From a virus: a stretch of DNA of 37,729 nt. Where the stretch lies: IMG/VR virus record IMGVR_UViG_3300034007_000002, positions 1 through 37,729 of that record, one strand, 5' to 3'. Position numbers and translations under genes: made by a program. Positions 2,688 to 28,849 of the stretch are shown piece by piece (position 1 is the first letter of the stretch; each line of letters starts with the position of its first letter). The notes under the pieces were generated by a model. The model did no database searches. It had not been told where the DNA came from and saw nothing but the letters and a program-made list of their open reading frames with translations.

Positions 2688-3613
2688 TGCCCGAGAGTGT
2701 CGTTAATTTTGTCGGCCCCTACACGGCGCAGAGTCTCATTGACCACATCGGGACTCCGACGCCGACGACGGCCGTCTGCTGGAAGCTCAGACCCGACCCG
2801 GCAAGCCCGCTCTACGCCTCGGGTCTGGAAGTGCGCGCCACCTCGCACGACCGGCCGCTCGTCCTTCCCGGCCACGGCTCTGCGTCGTTCCTGCCCGGCG
2901 TGGCGGGTATGCCGACGACGATTGACACCGAGAGCGGCCACGAATCGGCGGGGCTTCAATACGAGACCGTCTTCAACTCGGCGGGAATAACGCGCGAATC
3001 ACTCACGGCCGGGGATTGGGTGAAGGCGCGCGTCGAGATTTACACGGTCAACGTCAAAGCCCTGAACATGGGGCAGCTTATAGAGTTCGCGGGCTTCCTC
3101 GGCCGCGCCGACGAAGAGGGCGAACTGTGGAAGGCCGAGGCGCGACCCCTGACCGCCGTCGCGCAGGCGCAAGTCGGGAGGCTCACCTCTGCCCGCTGCA
3201 CCGTCAAGCGGCTCGGGGATGCGCGCTGCAAGGTCAATCTCAATGCTCCGGCCGTCGGGGACGGGGGCGCCATCCTCGTCAACGGCACTCTGACGCAGGT
3301 CGTGAGCGTGACACGCGTCCGCGCCTCTGCGCTTACGCAGACCGGCAACTATTTCGAGCTTCTTAAATTCACGTCGGGGCCGCTCTCGGGGCGGGAGTAT
3401 GAGGTCAGGGAATACGACCCCGCTAATAAAGAGTTCATCCTCCGCGACCCGATGCACCTGCTGCCGGCGGTCGGTAACACTTTCACCGCGACGCGCAGGT
3501 GTAACCGCGACCCGGCCGACTGCGTGCGCATCTACGCGAACATCATCAACAACCGGGGCTACAGGTTTATTACCAACGTCGAGCAGATCAACAAGATTCA
3601 GAGGGCTTCCTGA
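2687..3613 (+). CDS. Tail hub protein, DUF2163 / BR0599-like (RcGTA g13-like)
   Basis: ATGA start/stop overlap with the upstream gene. Contains RCTVKRLGDARCKVNL and a C-terminal RRCNRDPADCVRIYANIINNRGYRFI Cys motif typical of this family. Confidence 0.8.
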   Translation: MPESVVNFVGPYTAQSLIDHIGTPTPTTAVCWKLRPDPASPLYASGLEVRATSHDRPLVLPGHGSASFLPGVAGMPTTIDTESGHESAGLQYETVFNSAGITRESLTAGDWVKARVEIYTVNVKALNMGQLIEFAGFLGRADEEGELWKAEARPLTAVAQAQVGRLTSARCTVKRLGDARCKVNLNAPAVGDGGAILVNGTLTQVVSVTRVRASALTQTGNYFELLKFTSGPLSGREYEVREYDPANKEFILRDPMHLLPAVGNTFTATRRCNRDPADCVRIYANIINNRGYRFITNVEQINKIQRAS

Positions 3614-9141: not shown

Positions 9142-9283
9142 CCGTCCGGGTGGCGGCCTAGATCGTGCCATCAAGGGGGGAGAGTTTGTCGAATGAATCG
9201 AGATATTGATTGCTATGTTTAGCAGTTGGAATATAAGCTACGGCTTCTCGCGGTAAACACTCAGCAGAACCTCAGGAGAAACC

Positions 9284-10277: not shown

Positions 10278-10344
10278 TGTGTTCTCCTATAGAGATAGAG
10301 GTAGAGGTTAGAGTGGATGCGGAGTGAGGTTAAGGCGCAGGGAA

Positions 10345-10373
10345 ATCTTGCATGACGTGTCCGGGGTTGTCAA
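10345..10373 (-). promoter_or_regulatory. Sigma70-type promoter TTGACA-17-CAAGAT for 9921..10277
   Basis: Reverse complement of 10368-10373 is TTGACA, followed by a 17-bp spacer; reverse complement of 10345-10350 is CAAGAT. Confidence 0.5.
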
Positions 10374-10416: not shown

Positions 10417-10445
10417 TTGACACCACGCACCTCCGGTCGTATCGT
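10417..10445 (+). promoter_or_regulatory. Sigma70-type promoter TTGACA-17-TATCGT for the Cys-rich peptide gene
   Basis: TTGACA at 10417-10422, a 17-bp spacer, TATCGT at 10440-10445. The same hexamers and spacing occur at 19394-19422 and 20343-20371. Confidence 0.65.
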
Positions 10446-10505
10446 TCCCCCGTCACGGCCCCTCAACCTCATCGGCTTATGCTACTCACGACGAAGGAGA
10501 ACATC

Positions 10506-10700
10506 ATGCTGAAACGACTCACGCGCAAACTCATCACACTGTCCGTGCTCGTCGTCGCCCTCGCGGCCGTTTCGTCCGCTCCCGCCTCGGCTACGAGCTT
10601 TAACTGGGAATGCTATCAGGCACTCGACCCGAATACGGGGGAGTGCGTTATAATTTGCTGCGATGGTTCATGGTGCGACGGGACCCCCTGCCCAACCTAG
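10506..10700 (+). CDS. Secreted Cys-rich mini-protein (64-aa precursor, 6 Cys in about 35 mature residues)
   Basis: AAGGAG lies 6 nt upstream of ATG 10506. The product is signal peptide MLKRLTRKLITLSVLVVALAAVSSAPASA followed by TSFNWECYQALDPNTGECVIICCDGSWCDGTPCPT. Confidence 0.8.
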   Translation: MLKRLTRKLITLSVLVVALAAVSSAPASATSFNWECYQALDPNTGECVIICCDGSWCDGTPCPT

Positions 10701-10726
10701 AAGGCTTCCGCGAAAGAGCCTAGAGA

Positions 10727-10756
10727 GGGGCGGGGCTTCGGCCTTGCCCTTTTCTC
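10727..10756 (+). terminator. Rho-independent terminator
   Basis: GGGGCGGGGC-UUCG-GCCUUGCCCU, a 10-bp stem including G-U pairs with a UUCG tetraloop, followed by UUUCUC. Confidence 0.7.
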
Positions 10757-12836: not shown

Positions 12837-12973
12837 CTACTTATCCCTTTCGTTGGTAGGTTGTTGGCCGTGAGCCGTTGGCGTGCCTGTAACACGCTGG
12901 CGGCTCGTTTCCCTTCTGGCCCTGCGTTCGGTCGGAGGTGAATTCGCTCCGCCGAATGGTTAACTTGTGCGTA

Positions 12974-13002
12974 AGTCTAACGCGAGAGAAAGGGAAAGTC
13001 AA
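12974..13002 (-). promoter_or_regulatory. Leftward promoter TTGACT-17-TAGACT
   Basis: The minus strand reads TTGACT ttccctttctctcgcgt TAGACT. The -10 is embedded in CGCGTTAGACTT. Confidence 0.55.
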
Positions 13003-13016
13003 ACTAACAATTACTC

Positions 13017-13046
13017 TTGCGTAAACTTTTCTTTGGCGTTAGACTT
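13017..13046 (+). promoter_or_regulatory. Rightward promoter TTGCGT-17-TAGACT, 8 nt upstream of ATG 13054 (leaderless mRNA predicted)
   Basis: TTGCGT aaacttttctttggcgt TAGACT tcccagcc ATG. The -10 is embedded in GGCGTTAGACTT. No SD can fit in the 8-nt gap. Confidence 0.55.
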
Positions 13047-13053
13047 CCCAGCC

Positions 13054-13272
13054 ATGAGTGCAACACTTACGACCAAAGAAGCAGCCGAGCGCCTCGGAGT
13101 TTCGCCAGCGCGCGTGCGTCAACTTGTACTTTCGGGCGAACTGCCGGCTGAAAAGTTCGGCCGTGACCTGATGATTAAAGAAGGTGATTTGAAGTTGGTC
13201 GCGGATCGCCCGATAGGTCGGCCGCCGAAGGCGCAGACCAAGAACACAGCAAAGAAAGGCAGTAAGAAATGA
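13054..13272 (+). CDS. Excisionase/MerR-like HTH DNA-binding protein (72 aa)
   Basis: LTTKEAAERLGVSPARVRQLVLSGELPAEKFGRDLMIKEGDL fits the HTH_17 / excisionase-family pattern. The C-terminal tail is AKKGSKK. Confidence 0.75.
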   Translation: MSATLTTKEAAERLGVSPARVRQLVLSGELPAEKFGRDLMIKEGDLKLVADRPIGRPPKAQTKNTAKKGSKK

Positions 13273-16213: not shown

Positions 16214-16241
16214 TTGACAGGATTTAGATTGGCGTTAGACT
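16214..16241 (+). promoter_or_regulatory. Promoter TTGACA-16-TAGACT
   Basis: TTGACA at 16214-16219 and TAGACT at 16236-16241. The -10 context TTGGCGTTAGACT is identical to that at 13033-13045. Confidence 0.55.
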
Positions 16242-16247
16242 GCGATT

Positions 16248-16506
16248 ACAGAAGCGGCGGGTGTGGCCCTGGAAAGTCAACACCCGCCGCGAGTCAAACC
16301 AGGACTTTTGACAGCCCCGGCTCGTTTGCGAGTGTAGCGAGAACCGACCCGGGGCGCAACAGCCATGAAGGCCGCCCCGTGATGGCGCTCTCTAGTAGGG
16401 CGTCGGCTGAGCCGTAGGTTTAGGTTTCTCGCGCACCGCTTTGCGTGAGATGGCAGGGCGTTCGTCGTCGGGGGTCACGGCCCGACGGCGGACGCCTTTT
16501 GCTTTT
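16248..16506 (+). ncRNA. Candidate structured RNA or attenuator leader of about 260 nt between promoter and terminator
   Basis: No convincing ORF. There is an 11-bp perfect stem, GCGGCGGGTGT...ACACCCGCCGC, at about 16254-16290. Nested CCCCGG/CCGGGG helices follow, and the region ends in the strong terminator at 16457-16506. Confidence 0.35.
16457..16506 (+). terminator. Strong rho-independent terminator
   Basis: A 16-bp stem pairs 16457-16472 with 16481-16496 (two G-U pairs) around an 8-nt loop, followed by TTTTGCTTTT. Confidence 0.7.
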
Positions 16507-16526
16507 GACGGCGGCCGGTATCACGC

Positions 16527-16859
16527 ATGAAAAACCCCTTTCAGAACGGTTCGCTACGTTACGTCGAGGCGAACGGCGTCCGCTTTACTCGATCCGTCTG
16601 CGGGTACTGCGGTCTTCCCTGTGTCTACCTGGGGGAGGCCATCCGCATCGACTTAGCCGAGGGCGGCTTCCAAATCCTCCACGTCTGCCTCCCCTGCCGA
16701 CGGCACCTGTGTTTAGACCTGCGGGGGTTATCGGACGCCGAAGTAGACCGCCTCGGATATCCCAGCGGGTATCCCAGCGGGTATCCCAACCGCTCGCCGA
16801 GAAACGAGCGCCACCTCGAAGAAGTGCACAGCCGGTGGGAAAGGAGACGTGCAGCGTAA
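16527..16859 (+). CDS. Zinc-ribbon protein (110 aa) with a GYPSGYPSGYP repeat, translationally coupled to the primase gene
   Basis: CGYCG...C...HVCLPC forms a four-Cys motif. Its TAA overlaps the primase ATG (TAATG). The alternative frame, the N-terminal extension of the 774-aa ORF, is Arg-rich and protein-unlike. There is no clear SD before ATG 16527. Confidence 0.55.
   Translation: MKNPFQNGSLRYVEANGVRFTRSVCGYCGLPCVYLGEAIRIDLAEGGFQILHVCLPCRRHLCLDLRGLSDAEVDRLGYPSGYPSGYPNRSPRNERHLEEVHSRWERRRAA
16756..16791. repeat. Tandem 12-bp repeat x3 (GATATCCCAGCG GGTATCCCAGCG GGTATCCCAACC)
   Basis: Read directly. It lies inside the zinc-ribbon ORF, about 70-100 bp upstream of the primase start. Confidence 0.9.
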
Positions 16860-18769
16860 TGGCTCAGCCCGCCACGGCCTTCACGAAGCAGGACGCGAAG
16901 AGGGACCGCCAGACTTACCAGCGGCTCGCCGGCATCGTTGACCGCCTCCTGCACCGTGACATCCAACGCCTCGACGAAGAGACGGCGCGGAAGTTCTTCA
17001 AGTCGTCGGTCTTCGCCACCATCCACAGCCTGCACGGATTCCTGAACGGCCGCGAGGTCTCGCACGACAGGCCGGTGATGAAGGCTCACAAGTTCGTCGT
17101 CGAGCACTTCGGCTACCGCGGCGACCGCGAGAACGACGCGGCCGTCGCGCGCTTCATGGCGCGCCACCTCTCGGGGCTGGCCGACGCGGAGAGGGCCGTC
17201 GGGCACCGGTACGTCACCGTCCGCCGCGCCGACAATCAGACCCAGCTCTTCACCAGCTACGAGGGCACACCGCTGCTCGACGCGGCCGAGTGGGTCTACT
17301 TCACGGCGCGGCAGAAGCCCGACTACTGGAAGAACCCGGCGGCGGCCGTGACGGACGATTTGCTCGACGCCGCGCTCGCCAAACTCCCCGAGGTCAAGAC
17401 GCGGGACGACTCCATGCCGTGCGGTCATGCGCCCGAATCCGGCGAGTGCGACGAGTGCGTGCCTAAGACCTTCTGCGGGCATCCTTCGGGGTCGGGCCAG
17501 TGCGAAGAGTGCGAGAAATGGGAGGCGGGCGACCTGATGAACGATTCAGTCGTCAAGGGCATGTGGACGAAGATAATAAACGCCGCCGAGCGGGCGTTAA
17601 TCAAGGAGTTCGATTCCGGCGCGGACCCGGAGCTGGCCGCCGCCAAACACGCCGCGAAGATTATCGAGATGGGCAAGCATATCAAGGAGAAGCTCGCCCG
17701 CGAGCGGCTTCGGGCGGCGATGATGCCTGCGCGGCGACATGACGAGGAGGACGAGGACACGCAAACGACGCACAGTGGTAAAGAAAGTGTTACCTCAAAC
17801 GCGGGGGGTACCCCTGACAAATTTGTCAGGGTACCCGATGATTATGTAGTTGAACCGGTTGAGGTTACTGAACCGGCCGCAGAGGATTTACCCGAAATTC
17901 AGCGCAACGCGCTCGAATACGCGGCGGCGGGGATCGCCGTCCTCCCGCTGTGGGGGGTCGCGGACGCGATTTGTGATTGCCCCGCGGGTTCGGAGTGCCG
18001 GACGGCCGGGAAGCACCCGCACAGCCAGCTCGCCCGGAACGGCGTCTACTCGGCTACGATCGACGGGCAGGTCATACGCGGCTGGTTCAAGAAAGACCCG
18101 CGGATCAACCTGGGGGTTGCGATGGGCGGCGCCCTCAACCTCATCTGCGTAGACATAGACCCGCGCAACGACGGCGACGCCTCGTATTCAGATTTGATAG
18201 ACGCCCACGGCGAAGACGCCTTTCCCGAGACGTTCACCGTGAAGACCGGCGGGGGCGGCTGGCACCGCTACTACAGGCTCCCCTACACCATCAAAGCCGA
18301 GAAAGGCGAGCTAAAGGGAAAGCTCGGCCCCGGCATCGACATCAAAGGCGCGGGCGGGCAGATAGTCGCGCCCGGCTCAGTTCACTCAAGCGGCGCTTCC
18401 TATCAGGTCGAAACTAACGCCTACATCGTGGAAGCCCCGGAGTGGATGGTAAACGTCCTGCTCAAGTCGGCGTCCGGCGAGAAGCCCGAGGTCGTTGTTG
18501 ACTTTCAGGCGCACAGCGACCGGAAGCGCGCGGGGGTGGGCGGCCCAATCATCGTCGAGGGCGAGCGCAACGAAAGGCTCTTTAAGGTCGGGTGCGCGCT
18601 GTGGGGCAAGGGCGAAGTGGGGAGCCGGGGGGAGTTGTTACAGCGCCTCTCCGAAGTGAACCTCAAAAGGGTGTCACCCCCGCTCGACTCGGATGAGGTT
18701 TGGAAGATTGTTGAGAGCATAGTGAGCCGCTACGCCCTAGGCGTGCCGATTAAGGAAGGTGCCGCATGA
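16859..18769 (+). CDS. Bifunctional primase-polymerase (Prim-Pol domain plus PriCT-like C-terminus) with a roughly 330-aa N-terminal region of unknown type
   Basis: AAGGAG lies upstream of ATG 16859. Prim-Pol motifs are GIAVLPLWG...GKHP...NLICVDIDPRNDG...GGGWHRYY...GIDIKGAGGQIVAPGSVH. The C-terminus GERNERLFKVGCALWGKG...PLDSDEVWKIVESI is PriCT-like. Confidence 0.85.
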   Translation: MAQPATAFTKQDAKRDRQTYQRLAGIVDRLLHRDIQRLDEETARKFFKSSVFATIHSLHGFLNGREVSHDRPVMKAHKFVVEHFGYRGDRENDAAVARFMARHLSGLADAERAVGHRYVTVRRADNQTQLFTSYEGTPLLDAAEWVYFTARQKPDYWKNPAAAVTDDLLDAALAKLPEVKTRDDSMPCGHAPESGECDECVPKTFCGHPSGSGQCEECEKWEAGDLMNDSVVKGMWTKIINAAERALIKEFDSGADPELAAAKHAAKIIEMGKHIKEKLARERLRAAMMPARRHDEEDEDTQTTHSGKESVTSNAGGTPDKFVRVPDDYVVEPVEVTEPAAEDLPEIQRNALEYAAAGIAVLPLWGVADAICDCPAGSECRTAGKHPHSQLARNGVYSATIDGQVIRGWFKKDPRINLGVAMGGALNLICVDIDPRNDGDASYSDLIDAHGEDAFPETFTVKTGGGGWHRYYRLPYTIKAEKGELKGKLGPGIDIKGAGGQIVAPGSVHSSGASYQVETNAYIVEAPEWMVNVLLKSASGEKPEVVVDFQAHSDRKRAGVGGPIIVEGERNERLFKVGCALWGKGEVGSRGELLQRLSEVNLKRVSPPLDSDEVWKIVESIVSRYALGVPIKEGAA

Positions 18770-19149: not shown

Positions 19150-19230
19150 TGAGGGCTCCTTTTGAGTGCTGAGGGTTGATGGGAGGCCGACGGAGTTGAG
19201 GCCGTCAACCGTGAATCGCCATACCCGGGC

Positions 19231-19259
19231 AGCTTAATTGTGGTCGCCGCCCCTGTCAA
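19231..19259 (-). promoter_or_regulatory. Promoter TTGACA-17-TAAGCT for 18961..19149
   Basis: Reverse complement of 19254-19259 is TTGACA, followed by a 17-bp spacer; reverse complement of 19231-19236 is TAAGCT. Confidence 0.55.
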
Positions 19260-19393: not shown

Positions 19394-19422
19394 TTGACAG
19401 CCCTCCCCTCCCGGCGTATCGT
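19394..19422 (+). promoter_or_regulatory. Promoter TTGACA-17-TATCGT for 19497..19754
   Basis: TTGACA at 19394-19399 and TATCGT at 19417-19422. The leader resembles the one at 10417-10505. Confidence 0.65.
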
Positions 19423-19496
19423 TACCGCGTTCCTCGGTTGCGTTACGGTCCCTCAACCTCAACGGCTCCAGGCCACTCACGACGAAGGAGAACACC

Positions 19497-19754
19497 ATGC
19501 TGAAACATCCCGCGGGGCGACTCGCCCGCCGCCTCTCCGCCCTGTTCATGCTCGCCGCCGCCCTCACGACGCTCCTGTCAAATCCCGTTAGCCACCAAGC
19601 CGAGGGTTGGGCGGGCACTCCCGACTGGCCGCCGTGCTGTGGGTATACGTGTTCTCTGTCAATAGACGATGAGACGCAACAGTGCGTTATGACTTGCTGC
19701 CGGTGGCCGTCAGGCTGCATGACGGGCCCTTGCAGTCCAGAAGTGGAACCGTAG
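19497..19754 (+). CDS. Secreted Cys-rich mini-protein (85-aa precursor, 8 Cys), paralog of 10506..10700
   Basis: AAGGAG SD and a hydrophobic signal region. The tail CCGYTCSLSIDDETQQCVMTCCRWPSGCMTGPCSP aligns with ECVIICCDGSWCDGTPCP of the paralog. Confidence 0.8.
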   Translation: MLKHPAGRLARRLSALFMLAAALTTLLSNPVSHQAEGWAGTPDWPPCCGYTCSLSIDDETQQCVMTCCRWPSGCMTGPCSPEVEP

Positions 19755-19889
19755 GGCCCGATGACCCGGCGGCCGCGCTCCACGTGCCGATGCTGGGCGC
19801 GGCCCGACATCACAGAGCCCCACCTCTCATGTCACCGGTGACACCACAGACCTCTGGTCCGTAGTGTCAGGGGCCGGATAGAAGTAAAT

Positions 19890-19925
19890 GGGGGGGGCGG
19901 TACCTTCTGCGGTACCGCCCCCCCC
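19890..19925. terminator. Perfect 15-bp hairpin between convergent genes (likely bidirectional terminator)
   Basis: GGGGGGGGCGGTACC-ttctgc-GGTACCGCCCCCCCC. The flanking U-tracts are weak. Confidence 0.55.
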
Positions 19926-20271: not shown

Positions 20272-20342
20272 TGTGAGTCTCCTTGGTGAAGCGGACGTTA
20301 AACGAATGAGGTTGAGGGCCTCGCTTTAAAGGGAACGCGGGA

Positions 20343-20371
20343 ACGATACGCCCGGCGGTGGCGGGTGTCAA
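20343..20371 (-). promoter_or_regulatory. Promoter TTGACA-17-TATCGT for 19948..20271
   Basis: Reverse complement of 20366-20371 is TTGACA, followed by a 17-bp spacer; reverse complement of 20343-20348 is TATCGT. Confidence 0.65.
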
Positions 20372-20471: not shown

Positions 20472-20702
20472 ATGACCAGAACTTTAACGGCGACGATCTG
20501 GCGCGAGACGGACGGCTACGTCTCCCTCTGCCCCGAACTCGACATCGCCTCACAAGGGGATACGGTCGAGGAGGCGCGGGCGAACCTCCAGGAGGCGGTG
20601 GACCTCTTCTTCGAGGCGGCGGACGCCTCCGAGGTGGCCGAGCGTCTGAAGCCCGAGATGTACGTCACTTCGCTGGAGGTCAACGTTGGGGAGGCTGCGT
20701 AG
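20472..20702 (+). CDS. hicB: HicB-family antitoxin
   Basis: LTATIWRETDGYVSLCPELDIASQGDTVEEARANLQEAVDLFFE fits the HicB/UPF0150 N-terminal pattern. It overlaps the downstream toxin gene. Confidence 0.85.
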   Translation: MTRTLTATIWRETDGYVSLCPELDIASQGDTVEEARANLQEAVDLFFEAADASEVAERLKPEMYVTSLEVNVGEAA

Positions 20703-20910
20703 GCTCTCGGGGCGCGAGGTCTGCGCCATCCTCGCCCGCCACGGCTTCGCCGAGGCCCGCCAGCGCGGGAGTCACGTGGTCATGCAGAGGAGGACGGACC
20801 AGGGGACGGTGACCGTGCCGGTACCCCTCCACAACGAGCTGCGCACCGGCACGCTCCACTCCATCATCAGGCAGTCGGGGGTTCCGCGGGCGGAGTTCGA
20901 GACGGAGTAA
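20686..20910 (+). CDS. hicA: HicA-family mRNA interferase toxin (TTG start)
   Basis: LSGREVCAILARHGFAEARQRGSHVVMQR....VTVPVPLHNELRTGTLHSIIRQSGV fits the HicA/YcfA pattern. Confidence 0.85.
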   Translation: MGRLRRLSGREVCAILARHGFAEARQRGSHVVMQRRTDQGTVTVPVPLHNELRTGTLHSIIRQSGVPRAEFETE

Positions 20911-20976
20911 CACCTTCCCCGTCAACGGAGATGTCCCACTTTTGGGCACGCCGGCCTGAAATTCCCTCTCAAATCT

Positions 20977-21575: not shown

Positions 21576-22433
21576 ATGAAGGCTTACAAGGATTTTGGCC
21601 TTAAAGAGAATCCATTCGTGCCGAGTCCGAACCCCCGGTTCCTCTACCTGACCGACCAGACGAATGCTTGCCTCTTCAAGTGCAAGTTTGTCATCGAGGA
21701 GCGGCAGGGACTCTCCCTCATCGTCGGGAAAATCGGCTACGGCAAGACTTCGGTGCTGCGCGAGCTCCTGAACGGGTACATCGACGACGAGACTTACAAG
21801 ATCGCGATGCTCCCGAACGGCAGCTTCCCTTCCGAGATGCAGCTCGCGAAGGCCATCTCCAGTGAGTTGGGGCTCCCGGGTCGCCGGTCATTACTCGCGC
21901 AAATAAATGAGATACGCGACTACGCTTTCCAGATTTACGGCGGCGGCGGGACCATCATTCTCATCATCGACGAGGCGCAGAATCTTAAGGGCGCTCAGTT
22001 CGATTTCCTCCGGGAATTGCTCAATTTTGAGAGTAACGAGGCGAAGACCATTCAGATCATCATCGCCGGCCAGCCCGAGATTGAAACCAAACTGGCGACC
22101 AAGCCCGCACTCGTCTCCCGCATCATCCTGACGAACTACCTGGATACCTTCACGTTCGAGGACATGGTGGCCGCCCTGGAGCACCGGATACGCCTCGCCG
22201 GGGGTAAGCTCGACATCCTCGGTGAGGACGCGTTGAAGGCTCTCTACGTCGCTTCCAGGGGCGTCCCGCGCGAGATCATGAAGATTGCCAACGCTTCCCT
22301 TCTCCTCGCGGCCGTCAACGAAACCAGACCGATCACCGACGGCATCATCAAGCTAGCGGTCGAGAACATTTTGAGCACGGAACGAAATGGAGAACCGGAA
22401 ACCACTGAACTTCGCGCAGGCGCTTCGCAGTAG
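21576..22433 (+). CDS. ExeA-like AAA+ ATPase (AAA_22 type; relatives include ExeA, TniB and MuB-like proteins)
   Basis: FGLKENPFVPSPNPRFLYLTDQ...LIVGKIGYGKTSVLRELL (Walker A) and IILIIDEAQNL (Walker B). Confidence 0.85.
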   Translation: MKAYKDFGLKENPFVPSPNPRFLYLTDQTNACLFKCKFVIEERQGLSLIVGKIGYGKTSVLRELLNGYIDDETYKIAMLPNGSFPSEMQLAKAISSELGLPGRRSLLAQINEIRDYAFQIYGGGGTIILIIDEAQNLKGAQFDFLRELLNFESNEAKTIQIIIAGQPEIETKLATKPALVSRIILTNYLDTFTFEDMVAALEHRIRLAGGKLDILGEDALKALYVASRGVPREIMKIANASLLLAAVNETRPITDGIIKLAVENILSTERNGEPETTELRAGASQ

Positions 22434-23244: not shown

Positions 23245-23482
23245 ATGTTTTGAACGTGAAAACAGGCGGCGCGTCAGCCCCTTGCCAGAGTCCAAACGCG
23301 ACCGCCTGCCTTATCCGCTGACAGGCAGCGGGGCGGCAATCTTAGCATAAGTTTTGCCTCAAACAACCCCGCCGACCTGTTCCATTCTGGGAGCAGTTAA
23401 AGGCAGTGTCCGGCGGGGCAAGTAAGGATCATCGGCCGCCCGATTCGCGCATGTTTAGCGCGGGGGGTGGCCGTCTCTTTTT
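23245..23482 (+). ncRNA. Candidate structured RNA or leader of about 240 nt
   Basis: No convincing ORF. Helices include CAGGCGGCGCGT...ACGCGACCGCCTG, GGCAA...TTGCC and CCCCGCC...GGCGGGG. The region ends in a terminator-like hairpin. Confidence 0.3.
23433..23482 (+). terminator. Terminator-like compound hairpin followed by TCTCTTTTT
   Basis: CGGCCGCCC (23433-23441) pairs with GGGTGGCCG (23465-23473). An inner CGCGC/GCGCG stem is nested within, and a T-tract follows. Confidence 0.5.
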
Positions 23483-26391: not shown

Positions 26392-26892
26392 ATGGCTAAA
26401 GGTAATAAGAAGGGCGAAGAGGTGAATATATCCGAGCTCGCGCGGCGCGCGGGGCTCAATCGAGCAACCGTCAGGGAGAAGCTCGAAAGTAAGGGCGTCG
26501 AGCCGCGGCAGAAGAAAGCTAAAGAGAAGCTGTACGACCTCGACGAAGCGCTGGGCGCGCTCCAAACCGACGGCGCGACGGGGCTGCGGAAGGCGCAGAC
26601 GATGAAGACGGCGGCCGAGGCCGGCCGCGCAAAGCTCAGGCTCGACAGGGAGCGGGGCGAGCTGGTTCCGATTCACGACGTGCGCGCCGACGTGCAGGCA
26701 ATCATGCAGCAGGTTCTACAGCACTTCTCGGTGACGGCCCCGGCCGCGCTCGCGCCGCAGCTACGCGGAAAGAAGGTCGCGCAGATTGAGGCGTTGCTCG
26801 GGCGCGACGCCGAGCAGTTTTTCAGGGACTTACGAGGCGAAGAGGAGACGTATCTCAGTGAGGCGGCAGCGGAGGACAAGGGTAGTAGCTGA
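26392..26892 (+). CDS. Terminase small subunit, Nu1-like
   Basis: N-terminal HTH VNISELARRAGLNRATVREKLESKGV...KLYDLDEAL, followed by a helical region, as in lambda Nu1. It lies directly upstream of the large subunit. Confidence 0.75.
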   Translation: MAKGNKKGEEVNISELARRAGLNRATVREKLESKGVEPRQKKAKEKLYDLDEALGALQTDGATGLRKAQTMKTAAEAGRAKLRLDRERGELVPIHDVRADVQAIMQQVLQHFSVTAPAALAPQLRGKKVAQIEALLGRDAEQFFRDLRGEEETYLSEAAAEDKGSS

Positions 26893-28849
26893 GGCGATCG
26901 TCGCGGCGATCCCCGACACCGGCCTGACCGCCTCGCAGTGGGCGGCCAAGCACCGGCGCATCTCCGCGCTCTCGCCGATGCCCGGCCCGTGGCGCAACGA
27001 GGTCACGCCCTACCTCGTCGAGCCGATGGACTGCCTCGGCCTGCCCGGCGTCTACGAGATTATCTTCGTGGCCTCGGCGCAGATAGGTAAGACCGAGTTT
27101 TGTAACAACGGCGTGGGGTACTTCATGCACCATGAGCCGAGTTCAATCCTCTACGTCGCCGAGACGGACAAGAAGGCCGAGGCGTGGTCGAAGGAGAAAC
27201 TAACTCCGATGATTCGCGCCACGCCGGTACTTCGGTCTTTGGTCAGGGACAGGCGCGAGCGCGACTCGGGCAACACCATCGAGGGCAAGTCCTTCCCCGG
27301 CGGCTTCCTCGCCATCGGCTACGCGACGAGCGCCGAGACGCTTTCCTCGCGCTCCTCCCGCGTGGCCTTCCTCGACGAGCGCGACGCCTACAAGCGGACG
27401 AAAGAGGGCGACCCGGCGGCGCTGGCCGAGAAGCGCACCATCACCTTCAAGGAGCGGCGGAAGGTCGTCAAAGTGTCGAGCCCGCGCGACCGGCTGGAGC
27501 CTCCGCAGGGTGCTCCACCTGACGCCCCAAAGTTTTCGCCTATCGAGTGGGAGTATGAGCAGAGCGACAAGCGCAAGTATTGGGTTCCGTGTCCCCACTG
27601 CGGCGAGTATCAGGTCTTGACCTGGAAGAACGAGGCGGGCGACTACTGTATCAAGTGGGACGGCGACGACGTAGAAAACGCCTTCTACGCCTGTCAGGTC
27701 TCGGGCTGCGTCATCGAGCACGAACACAAGGCCGACATGCTTGCGGCGGGTGAATGGCGCGCGGAGAACCCTTTCAACGGCCGCGCCGGCTTCTGGATTT
27801 GGGAGGCTTACTCTCCCTTCGTTACCTGGGGACAGATCGCCGCCAACTTCCTGCGAGCCAAGAATGACGCCGAGCAGTTGAAGGTCTTCGTCAACACGAC
27901 TCTCGCGCAGGGGTGGGAAGAGTTTCAGGGCGGTATCGAAGTGACAGACCTCGAAGAGAGGCGCGAGCCTTACATCGAGTTCCTGCCCGACGGCGTGCTC
28001 ATCATCACCGCCGCGACCGACGTGCAGCACAACCGCTTAGAGTATGAAGTCGTCGGCTGGGGTCAGGACTTCGAGAGCTGGTCACTCGATTACGGCGTCA
28101 TCCCCGGCGACCCGTCGCAGGCTGAAGTCTGGGAAAAGCTAAAGGTCGCGCTGACCCGCGGCTTTGAATACGAGGCGGGTCTCGGCGGCGTCGAGCTGGC
28201 GGACGACGAGAGCGGCGCCAGCGCCGTGCTTCAGATGCGTGTCATGGCGGCGTGCATAGACTCGGGCGGGCATCACTCGGAAGACGTGTATCGCTTCTGC
28301 CGCGCGAACGCCGCACGCCGCTTCTACGCCGTGAAGGGCGCGAACGTGCCCGGTAAGCCGCTCGTCTCCCAGCCTTCTTTACTCAGGAAGGCCGGCGGGT
28401 TCGTGCGCCTCTACACCGTGGGAACTGAGACGGCGAAAGACACTTTCGTCAACCGGCTCGCGGTCAAAGAGGCGGGGCCGGGCTTCTGTCACTTCCCCGA
28501 CGAGTTCGAGCGCGACGGCCGCATTTACTACGGTGAGGACTACTTTAAACAGTTGCGCTCCGAGCACGCGGTTATGAAGCGCACGAAGCGCGGGACGGCG
28601 CGCGTGTGGGAGAAGATAAAAGCGAGCTGGCGTAACGAAGCTCTCGACCTGCGGGTCTACAACATGGCCGCGCTCGCCATCCTCGGCATTGACCGGGAAG
28701 CCCTCGACAGACTCGCCGAGCGCCGCGCCGAGGGTAAGCCCCTGCCGCAGCCCCCGGCCGAAGGCCAGAAGAGGAAATCAATAATCCGCAGCACTGGTAA
28801 GGGCTTCGTCCCGCCCTTCTCGCGCGGCGGGTTCGGAAGGAGATTCTAG
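26858..28849 (+). CDS. Terminase large subunit, GpA family
   Basis: GAGGAG lies 10 nt upstream of GTG 26858 (alternative ATG at 26786). VASAQIGKTEF is the Walker A motif typical of lambda gpA relatives. Length is about 660 aa. Confidence 0.9.
   Translation: MRRQRRTRVVAEAIVAAIPDTGLTASQWAAKHRRISALSPMPGPWRNEVTPYLVEPMDCLGLPGVYEIIFVASAQIGKTEFCNNGVGYFMHHEPSSILYVAETDKKAEAWSKEKLTPMIRATPVLRSLVRDRRERDSGNTIEGKSFPGGFLAIGYATSAETLSSRSSRVAFLDERDAYKRTKEGDPAALAEKRTITFKERRKVVKVSSPRDRLEPPQGAPPDAPKFSPIEWEYEQSDKRKYWVPCPHCGEYQVLTWKNEAGDYCIKWDGDDVENAFYACQVSGCVIEHEHKADMLAAGEWRAENPFNGRAGFWIWEAYSPFVTWGQIAANFLRAKNDAEQLKVFVNTTLAQGWEEFQGGIEVTDLEERREPYIEFLPDGVLIITAATDVQHNRLEYEVVGWGQDFESWSLDYGVIPGDPSQAEVWEKLKVALTRGFEYEAGLGGVELADDESGASAVLQMRVMAACIDSGGHHSEDVYRFCRANAARRFYAVKGANVPGKPLVSQPSLLRKAGGFVRLYTVGTETAKDTFVNRLAVKEAGPGFCHFPDEFERDGRIYYGEDYFKQLRSEHAVMKRTKRGTARVWEKIKASWRNEALDLRVYNMAALAILGIDREALDRLAERRAEGKPLPQPPAEGQKRKSIIRSTGKGFVPPFSRGGFGRRF

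Follow-up and report, generated by a model that had tools for sequence, protein, structure and literature searches.

What do the small secreted-protein genes of a tailed phage share in front of their start codons, and would the shared part act in the DNA or in the mRNA? Here, we describe the promoter-leader regions of five small signal-peptide genes (g1 to g5) in IMG/VR virus record IMGVR_UViG_3300034007_000002, whose positions 1 to 37,729, here called the window, are an essentially complete tailed phage genome of 37,729 nt with ~63% G+C. An initial annotation had proposed that one promoter type and a C/U-rich leader motif, here called the box, unite the five genes in a regulon. From comparison of the leaders in this and related genomes, we argue that the box is a discrete, constrained element, apparently placed relative to the ribosome-binding site and not relative to the promoter.

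Promoters and leader box of five phage cassettes

The pattern TTGACA-N17-NANNNT occurs at exactly five sites on both strands of the genome, against 0.31 expected from shuffles, and all five lie upstream of g1 to g5, one each; TTGACA-N17-TANNNT fits four of the five (0.02 expected). Pattern scanning thus bears out the promoters of the initial annotation, in which TTGACA and 17 bp are followed by TATCGT in three genes, TAAGCT in one and CAAGAT in one. A perfect TTGACA and a 17-bp spacer at five sites make these predicted promoters sigma-70-type in sequence. The hexamers are conserved in orthologous cassettes, with most of the spacer and upstream DNA diverged. The cassettes comprise the following features, with terminators predicted and signal peptides (Sec-type N-termini) judged by eye.

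10345-10373, minus strand: g1 promoter (TTGACA, 17 nt, CAAGAT)
10335-10325, minus strand: g1 box variant CCTTAACCTCA, 1 mismatch
10313-10290, minus strand: CCTCTA hexamer tandem of the g1 leader, period 6, 3.8 copies
10277-9921, minus strand: g1 coding sequence (CDS), 118 aa, distant paralogue of g5
9874-9845, minus strand: g1 terminator (terminator prediction)
10417-10445, plus strand: g2 promoter (-35 TTGACA at 10417-10422, 17-nt spacer ending in CCGGTCG, -10 TATCGT at 10440-10445)
10460-10471, plus strand: g2 leader box CCCTCAACCTCA, 34 nt before the ATG
10494-10499, plus strand: g2 Shine-Dalgarno (SD) sequence AAGGAG
10506-10700, plus strand: g2 CDS, 64 aa, signal peptide and Cys-rich peptide
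10722-10755, plus strand: g2 intrinsic-terminator-like hairpin, 3' arm running into a U-rich tract (CCCUUUUCUCAUU), -29.5 kcal/mol, z -2.4
19231-19259, minus strand: g3 promoter (TTGACA, 17 nt, TAAGCT)
19210-19185, minus strand: g3 leader hairpin GGUUGACGG/CCGUCGGCC, 9 bp, presenting CCUCAACU in its loop (predicted fold)
19191-19201, minus strand: g3 box variant CCTCAACTCCG
19177-19170, minus strand: second box of g3, AACCCTCA
19161-19156, minus strand: g3 SD sequence
19149-18961, minus strand: g3 CDS, 62-aa Cys-rich peptide
18944-18919, minus strand: g3 terminator (terminator prediction)
19394-19422, plus strand: g4 promoter (TTGACA, 17 nt, TATCGT)
19450-19461, plus strand: g4 leader box CCCTCAACCTCA, 35 nt before the ATG
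19485-19490, plus strand: g4 SD sequence
19497-19754, plus strand: g4 CDS, 85-aa secreted Cys-rich peptide, paralogue of g2
19890-19925, no strand assigned: hairpin between the convergent g4 and g5, G+C-rich palindrome of 15 pairs, 13 of them G-C
20343-20371, minus strand: g5 promoter (TTGACA at 20371-20366, 17 nt, TATCGT at 20348-20343)
20307-20318, minus strand: g5 leader box CCCTCAACCTCA, 35 nt before the ATG
20284-20279, minus strand: g5 SD sequence
20271-19948, minus strand: g5 CDS, 107-aa secreted protein, single SprB-like immunoglobulin (Ig) domain

The 11-mer CCTCAACCTCA at the core of the box has four exact copies in the genome, against 0.02 expected. Three are in leaders, at 10461 (+), 19451 (+) and 20307 (-), where the initial annotation had placed them; the fourth, at 18133 (+) inside the prim-pol CDS, had been missed. 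The variants given at 10325-10335 and 19191-19201 are real, and the CCTCTA reiteration of the g1 leader is the tandem listed above. From the -10 hexamer to the motif, the five cassettes measure 9, 15, 25, 28 and 29 nt, and from the motif to the ATG 34 (g2), 35 (g4), 35 (g5), 47 (g1) and 41 nt (g3), so that the earlier ranges (9-29 nt, and 34-35 nt in three genes) are correct. Two further copies of AACCTCA near open reading frame (ORF) starts, at 9268 and 36591, were set aside, as those ORFs are not secreted-protein cassettes.

A homologous promoter-leader of ~110 bp, hereafter the module, stands in front of g2, g4 and g5 (E ~1e-25 to 1e-29 with a profile hidden Markov model of the module; alignment). 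As had been noted for ~90 bp upstream of 10506 and 19497, the g2 and g4 upstream regions align. The g1 leader matches the module profile weakly (E 0.26) and the g3 leader gives no match to it. The proposal of one regulon of five genes therefore holds in part: the sharing of promoter and box is non-random and regulon-like, and g1 and g3 lack the module and have only a box-like sequence. All that the five leaders have in common is a strong promoter of generic kind and a short sequence resembling the box; the g1 and g3 leaders, of diverged or independent type, nonetheless include the box.

A terminator-like hairpin ends every cassette, and all five are therefore independent transcription units. 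The hairpin at 19890-19925 was scored as the g5 terminator (minus strand) and, from its position, probably also serves g4. In TATCGT-type cassettes a G is conserved 7 nt after the hexamer (6 nt in the metagenome cassette L106c), which is only suggestive as a mark of the transcription start; chromosomal TATTGT-type orthologues have no G there. A promoter for an extracytoplasmic function sigma factor (GAC..CGTA) was dropped as a candidate because conservation is higher in TAT(C/T)GT than in the CG that precedes it.

The module in related phages and host chromosomes

The initial annotation had suggested a search of related phages and host genomes, and this search finds the module far beyond the window. 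It precedes more than 20 cassettes, in four related phage contigs, in metagenome-assembled genomes (MAGs) of Pyrinomonadaceae and in metagenome contigs, and across at least 20 cassettes the architecture of the g2 promoter is conserved. Its layout is CGTTGACAC, ~8 variable nt, CCGGGCG-TATYGT and TCCCGCGTTCCCC, then a variable segment, GCCC-YY-AACCTCA, ~35 nt with CTCAC and AAGGAGA, and the ATG. Profile search located it in phage contigs L001 (two copies), L019 and L192 and in MAG or metagenome loci L031-L036, L102, L104, L106-L108, L111 and L113; in phage contig L195 it was located by DNA pattern scan. The pattern AAGGAGAA-N4-ATGCTGAAA has at least 80 matches in IMG/VR, and among the matches listed one new locus (L192) was significant in the profile search, L019 being already known. 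A metagenome scan with the g5 family gave one extra usable leader only (L071, a duplicate of L036), and the Thermoanaerobaculia relatives L072-L074 are without the module.

An 18-sequence alignment was scored for identity only between two cargo/leader types (9 x 9 pairs), allowing a 1-column alignment offset in counting SD identity. Cross-type identity reaches ~0.7-0.9 only at CGTTGACA (-35), CCGG.CGTATYGTT, GCCC..AACCTCA, the ATG and the SD sequence, and is ~0.0-0.3 to either side of the box. Within the transcribed part, nothing but the box is conserved as a block when the two leader types, otherwise different, are compared. Read directly from the cassette sequences, the box-to-ATG distance is 34-37 nt in 18 of the 19 alignable class-A cassettes, with 13-29 nt from the -10 hexamer to the box. 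The box or a near-copy of it occurs in four leader contexts (class A; g1; g3 with L109; L105-type). Among g5 orthologues the upstream 105 nt are 72% identical, compared with 73% at first and second and 67% at third codon positions. Between the g5 of the window and that of L113, which share 56% protein identity, the upstream region is 84% identical, compared with 61% at third codon positions.

Cargo behind the module belongs to at least three unrelated families: the SprB-like 107-aa protein, Cys-rich peptides, and a 141-aa secreted protein of L001 (L001a) with no Pfam match. The prim-pol of L001 is 86% identical to that of the window, and g5 is retained there with the same promoter, box and spacing; a second module copy, with an 18-bp spacer, drives the unrelated 141-aa protein. 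Upstream of the L001 prim-pol, the place of g1 and g2 in the window, the only module found is that of the 141-aa cargo, and neither g3 nor g4 is present between prim-pol and g5. Divergent from a hicB-like gene, a class-A cassette is found in the window, L001, L019 and L113, with g5-type cargo in the window, L001 and L113 and g2-type cargo in L019; cargo thus differs behind the same promoter at one locus, which indicates modular exchange. The HicB-like antitoxin gene of the window lies at 20472-20702 (weak Pfam matches), and the ORF 3' of it, at ~20700-20950, has a product that is HicA-like by eye (..LSGREVCAILARHGFAEAR..). In L192 (4637-4900) the module drives a 32-aa ORF consisting of a signal peptide and a few residues, directly followed by another signal-peptide gene, which suggests that cargo behind an intact module has decayed or been replaced.

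The g5 family comprises ~110-aa single-domain proteins resembling the SprB repeat, with sub-threshold PF13573 matches in 29 of the 32 members, and its genomic copies are in Pyrinomonadaceae or Acidobacteriota MAGs. One cassette (L031/L034; L031 6001-6345) is a single-copy orthologue between ruvC/yebC and yggT/ligA on a 5.17-Mb Acidobacteriota chromosome. The chromosomal copies have promoters orthologous to that of g5 (CGTTGACAC...CCGGGYG-TATTGT) and box variants CCCTTAACCTCA, CCCTTCACCTCA or CCCCTAAATCTCA, in most cases with 35-37 nt between box and ATG (L032 has 30 nt). Modules of the g2/g4 family are found in L104, L106c, L107 and L108, with a degenerate form in L102. In this family the signal peptide (MLKRLTRKLITLSVLVVALAAVSS) hardly varies, whereas the mature part, 30-35 aa long with 4-8 Cys, is hypervariable; ~25 variants occur in metagenomes and Pyrinomonadaceae MAGs (proteins P0032-P0056). 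The g3 type is represented by L109/L110, from a Pyrinomonadaceae MAG, where the promoter, spacer included, and the hairpin are kept and a better box, CCTCAACCTCC, lies in the loop. Since chromosomal Pyrinomonadaceae genes carry the module, the host of the phage is likely a Pyrinomonadaceae bacterium (Acidobacteriota), and the module is a feature of the host lineage and not a phage invention. It is re-used in phages with exchangeable cargo, and is not a phage-specific regulon signal.

Several neighbours of these cassettes were recorded. An XRE-family helix-turn-helix (HTH) protein of ~90-100 aa (RLAEKLLQIR..LGLSQ.E...LPAKLP), conserved in four host or metagenome loci, is encoded beside cassettes in L104 (4398-4676), L107 (3623-3898), L109 (3258-3533) and L111 (4078-4389); no homologue was found in the window or the related phage loci. 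L104 and L109 additionally have a DDE_Tnp_1 transposase in the vicinity. In L106 (1251-3095), three Cys-rich peptide cassettes cluster with a thioredoxin-like gene (weak PF13098 match); two of the three use another promoter (TACACT) and a related leader with CCCCTCGGCCTCA, and in one cassette the segment next to the SD sequence is duplicated. A repeated palindrome, GGTGACACC(A/G)CAGACC...GTGTCACC, follows cassettes at several loci of phages and metagenomes; it could be a repetitive extragenic palindrome (REP)- or miniature inverted-repeat transposable element (MITE)-like repeat, an operator or an att-related site. Its sites are as follows.

Window, 19830-19875: palindromic repeat
L001, 12745-12790: palindromic repeat
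L019, 2930-2965 and 5300-5350: palindromic repeats
L106, 3195-3225: palindromic repeat

RNA element, operator or recombination footprint

A box that is placed by the ATG and not by the promoter, and that is conserved between leader types, favours a sequence-specific mRNA element and a shared regulatory logic. We give an even chance to the reading that the box is a cis-acting, single-stranded mRNA element working at translation initiation or as a binding site for a factor. Transcription would start upstream of the box, which would then act on the RNA and promote or regulate translation. Each of the five genes would form a self-contained, moron-like unit that runs from a strong host promoter of the sigma-70 type through a short leader and the reading frame of a small Sec-type protein to a terminator of its own; g2, g4 and g5 would be built on the one host-lineage expression module of ~110 bp. 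At the 5' edge of the ribosome-binding region, the pyrimidine/A-rich and G-poor box may serve as a ribosome standby or enhancer site (S1-type) or, alternatively, be where an RNA-binding factor of the host docks. In both cases, the outcome would be high or co-ordinated translation of secreted mini-proteins from a strong promoter read by the host RNA polymerase.

RNA folding agrees with an unstructured element. Most predicted folds leave the box unpaired or place it in a hairpin loop: it is mostly unpaired in the single-sequence fold of g2, one predicted 2-bp stem excepted, and loop-presented in g3. Leaders are C-rich with 16-20% G, compared with 31% in the genome, and in g1 the 45 nt before the SD sequence have 2% G. 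The box ends ~22 nt upstream of a strong AAGGAG, and a tract predicted to be single-stranded, poor in G and kept a short, constant distance upstream of the SD sequence is what an enhancer or standby sequence would present. Single-sequence leader folds have z-scores of -1.1 to +0.6. RNAalifold consensus structures of g5-type and g2-type leaders (9 and 8 sequences) reach -1.9 and -2.7 kcal/mol with 0 compensated pairs, and contain only an invariant weak CUUC/GGAG or CUC/GAG pairing beside the SD sequence. Rfam gives 0 matches at gathering thresholds across the window and, at E <= 1 in the leader regions, only sub-threshold chance matches, mostly on the terminator hairpin. With no compensatory changes and stability not beyond shuffles, the leaders do not have the marks of a structured RNA (riboswitch, attenuator, thermometer). 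Of the initial annotation's RNA element positioned by the start codon, then, the positioning stands in class-A cassettes, and no conserved structure, covariation or Rfam family goes with it.

Two structural candidates were rejected. Short stems that by eye seemed to join bases immediately after the -10 hexamer to bases immediately before the box (CUUCGU/ACGAAG in L001 g5; ACGUG/CACGU in L108; UUCGC/GCGAA in L031) were not counted as evidence because they are absent in several cassettes (L019, L106c), are not recovered by RNAalifold and have a 5' arm that overlaps the predicted transcription start site. Sequestration of the SD sequence by the box is ruled out on sequence, as CCUC needs GAGG and the SD sequence is AAGGAGA.

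Several observations weigh against an mRNA element. The boxes of g1 and g3 stand 47 and 41 nt from the ATG, and L105-type leaders have a box-like sequence only ~21 nt from it. The exact 14-mer CCCTCAACCTCATC of the g2 leader recurs in the prim-pol CDS at 18131-18144; sequence alone therefore does not define a leader. G-poverty of the g2-g5 leaders is only at the 4th to 11th percentile, and the transcription start upstream of the box is placed by promoter geometry only. No covariation speaks for RNA-level selection, and a DNA-level site would give the same conservation. Finally, the 11-mer CCTCAACCTCA is identical in all eight alignable window and IMG/VR viral cassettes except that of L195 (CACTCAACCTCA); the cassettes are related, and sequence exchange by recombination may inflate identity. 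As to the prim-pol copy itself, the 14-mer encodes ..ALNLI.., just before a V-D-I-D stretch, and the 11-mer is also kept in L001, at 11619; the copy may be chance, coding constraint or a recombination footprint.

The last of these points leads to a reading in which the box has no specific function and is kept through recent duplication or recombination. In that case the promoter-leader would provide the homology by which cargo is exchanged and genes are converted, and the leader would be no more than G-poor and unstructured, as well-translated mRNAs often are. Cargo swapped behind the same promoter at the hicB locus fits this, as does the contrast between the near-invariant viral 11-mer and the varying chromosomal copies, and in g2-type genes the high conservation of the first 30 nt of signal-peptide DNA and the near-identical signal peptide are compatible with concerted evolution of the 5' part. 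We nevertheless think it improbable: recombination would carry flanks along, yet the flanks differ between leader types where the box is ~80% identical; the box or near-copies stand in four different leader contexts; and in chromosomal orthologues, whose proteins are 55-63% identical to phage g5, a box variant (Y-rich, then AA(C/T)CTCA or CACCTCA) aligns with the box and the spacing to the ATG is retained. It is likewise unlikely that the box, possibly with the CCGG spacer block, is a DNA operator, acting as roadblock or pause site, through which one transcription factor would co-regulate the cassettes as a regulon. A CCGG(G)CG block just upstream of the -10 hexamer is unusual for a plain sigma-70 promoter, and a conserved XRE-type gene, whose product is the candidate factor, adjoins cassettes in L104, L107, L109/L110 and L111. 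CAACCT within the box also makes a weak -10-like (NANNNT) hexamer, which could, we infer, induce sigma-dependent pausing. An operator would, however, leave the varying promoter distance (13-29 nt) and the constrained ATG distance unaccounted for; the box has no dyad symmetry, with two half-repeats 6 bp apart; the XRE homologue is missing from the phage loci; and the placing of the g3 box in a conserved hairpin loop is more natural for RNA recognition.

RNA recognition by pairing, with the box as the target of a trans-acting antisense or small RNA of phage or host that pairs with CCUCAACCUC, is very improbable. Predicted single-strandedness, with presentation in a loop in g3, is typical of seed-pairing targets, but the strong complements (GAGGUUGAGG) in the phage are only the opposite strands of the leader boxes and of the prim-pol copy, and no Rfam small RNA is found in the window. 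The candidate RNAs at 16248-16506 and 23245-23482, which the initial annotation had offered as pairing partners, show no special complementarity: their duplexes of -9 to -12.5 kcal/mol rank between the 22nd and 75th percentiles when all 260-nt windows are compared.

Moron-like cassettes and their possible meaning

In the genome, the five small genes sit between tail and replication modules, in divergent or convergent orientation relative to neighbour genes. A phage database search found no near relative among deposited phages, and no tRNA or tmRNA was found in the phage genome. Further phage genes encode a portal, a major head protein, a tape measure and gene transfer agent-like tail proteins. 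No integrase was detected among the ORFs scanned, in which an HTH_17 (Xis/AlpA-like) ORF at 12967-13272 is the sole lysogeny-type signal; a TniB/MuB-like AAA ATPase is encoded at 21576-22433. A sixth perfect TTGACA promoter-like site, with a 16-bp spacer and TAGACT (16214-16241), lies upstream of prim-pol and is conserved in L192, and the annotated prim-pol ORF opens with an 18-pair hairpin that has a T-rich tail (16455-16498). Two genes serve as landmarks.

26786-28849: gpA terminase, lambda-type
16445-18769: prim-pol gene

Phage morons are autonomous promoter-gene-terminator units, such as lambda bor and lom and the HK97 morons ('The moron comes of age', PMC3594210). The g1-g5 cassettes resemble them in having their own sigma-70-type promoter and intrinsic terminator outside neighbouring operons, in lying between conserved phage modules, in encoding small envelope or secreted proteins, and in varying in presence and cargo between close phages (window, L001, L019 and L192). 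In structure, they fit the published description of a moron. Unlike known morons, several share one homologous promoter-leader that is also on chromosomal host genes, with cargo exchanged behind it; what is unusual is that one promoter-leader(-signal peptide) module of the host lineage underlies several morons, the cargo being exchangeable and in part hypervariable.

By analogy, the box itself seems most like a translational enhancer or standby site, yet it belongs to no described family. Such sites include the T7 gene 10 epsilon sequence, S1-binding pyrimidine- or A/U-rich tracts and the standby sites of the de Smit and van Duin model. The box shares with them that it is short, unstructured, G-poor and at a fixed distance upstream of a strong SD sequence, and differs in being C/A-rich (CCCUCAACCUCA) where they are U/A-rich. 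Stabilisers in the 5' untranslated region (UTR) of highly expressed secreted or envelope genes (the ompA and aprE 5' stem-loops; cryIIIA STAB-SD) likewise are conserved leader elements, here too in front of secreted-protein genes, but they need a 5'-terminal hairpin or an SD-like sequence, whereas the module leaders have no conserved hairpin and the box resembles anti-SD (ACCUC). RfaH acts at ops/JUMPstart, a 12-nt leader element of surface and secretion operons; the box matches it in length (12 nt), in variable promoter distance and in standing before genes for exported products, but has no resemblance to GGCGGTAGnnTG, and the cassettes are single short ORFs in place of long operons. As a candidate, ops/RfaH was rejected: GGCGGTAGnnTG has only two 1-mismatch matches, at 3390 and 16231, none in a cassette leader and fewer than chance.

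For the cargo, conotoxins and mussel MgCRP-I (PMC4558851) are eukaryotic families with a conserved pre-region and hypervariable Cys-rich mature peptides. In g2-type cargo a near-identical signal peptide (and 5' UTR) is likewise joined to hypervariable mature peptides, though the family is bacterial and phage-borne and the likeness concerns the cargo, not the leader box. A literature search found no bacterial or phage counterpart of such a conserved-signal, hypervariable Cys-rich family. We put forward only tentatively, as possible and rather doubtful, that a dedicated factor acting in trans, whether an RNA-binding protein or the ribosome through a non-SD contact, recognises CCCUCAACCUCA and co-ordinates a Pyrinomonadaceae-wide regulon of fast-diversifying Sec-secreted mini-proteins, among them conotoxin-like Cys-rich peptides and single Ig-domain proteins, and that phages captured the promoter-leader-signal module to plug in new cargo.

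Acidobacteriota are among the most abundant soil phyla and, to our knowledge, their gene-expression signals are little studied. Should the box prove to be without effect, what remains is a set of ordinary moron promoters of shared ancestry. As it stands, a ~110-bp module of strong promoter, leader box, SD sequence and signal peptide, kept across chromosomes and phages and repeatedly recombined with secreted cargo, is a concrete candidate for a lineage-specific 5'-UTR control element and supplies an off-the-shelf cassette for expressing and secreting proteins in a group not easily manipulated. It also points to a hypervariable family of secreted Cys-rich peptides in phage and host, which may mediate competition or phage-host interplay.

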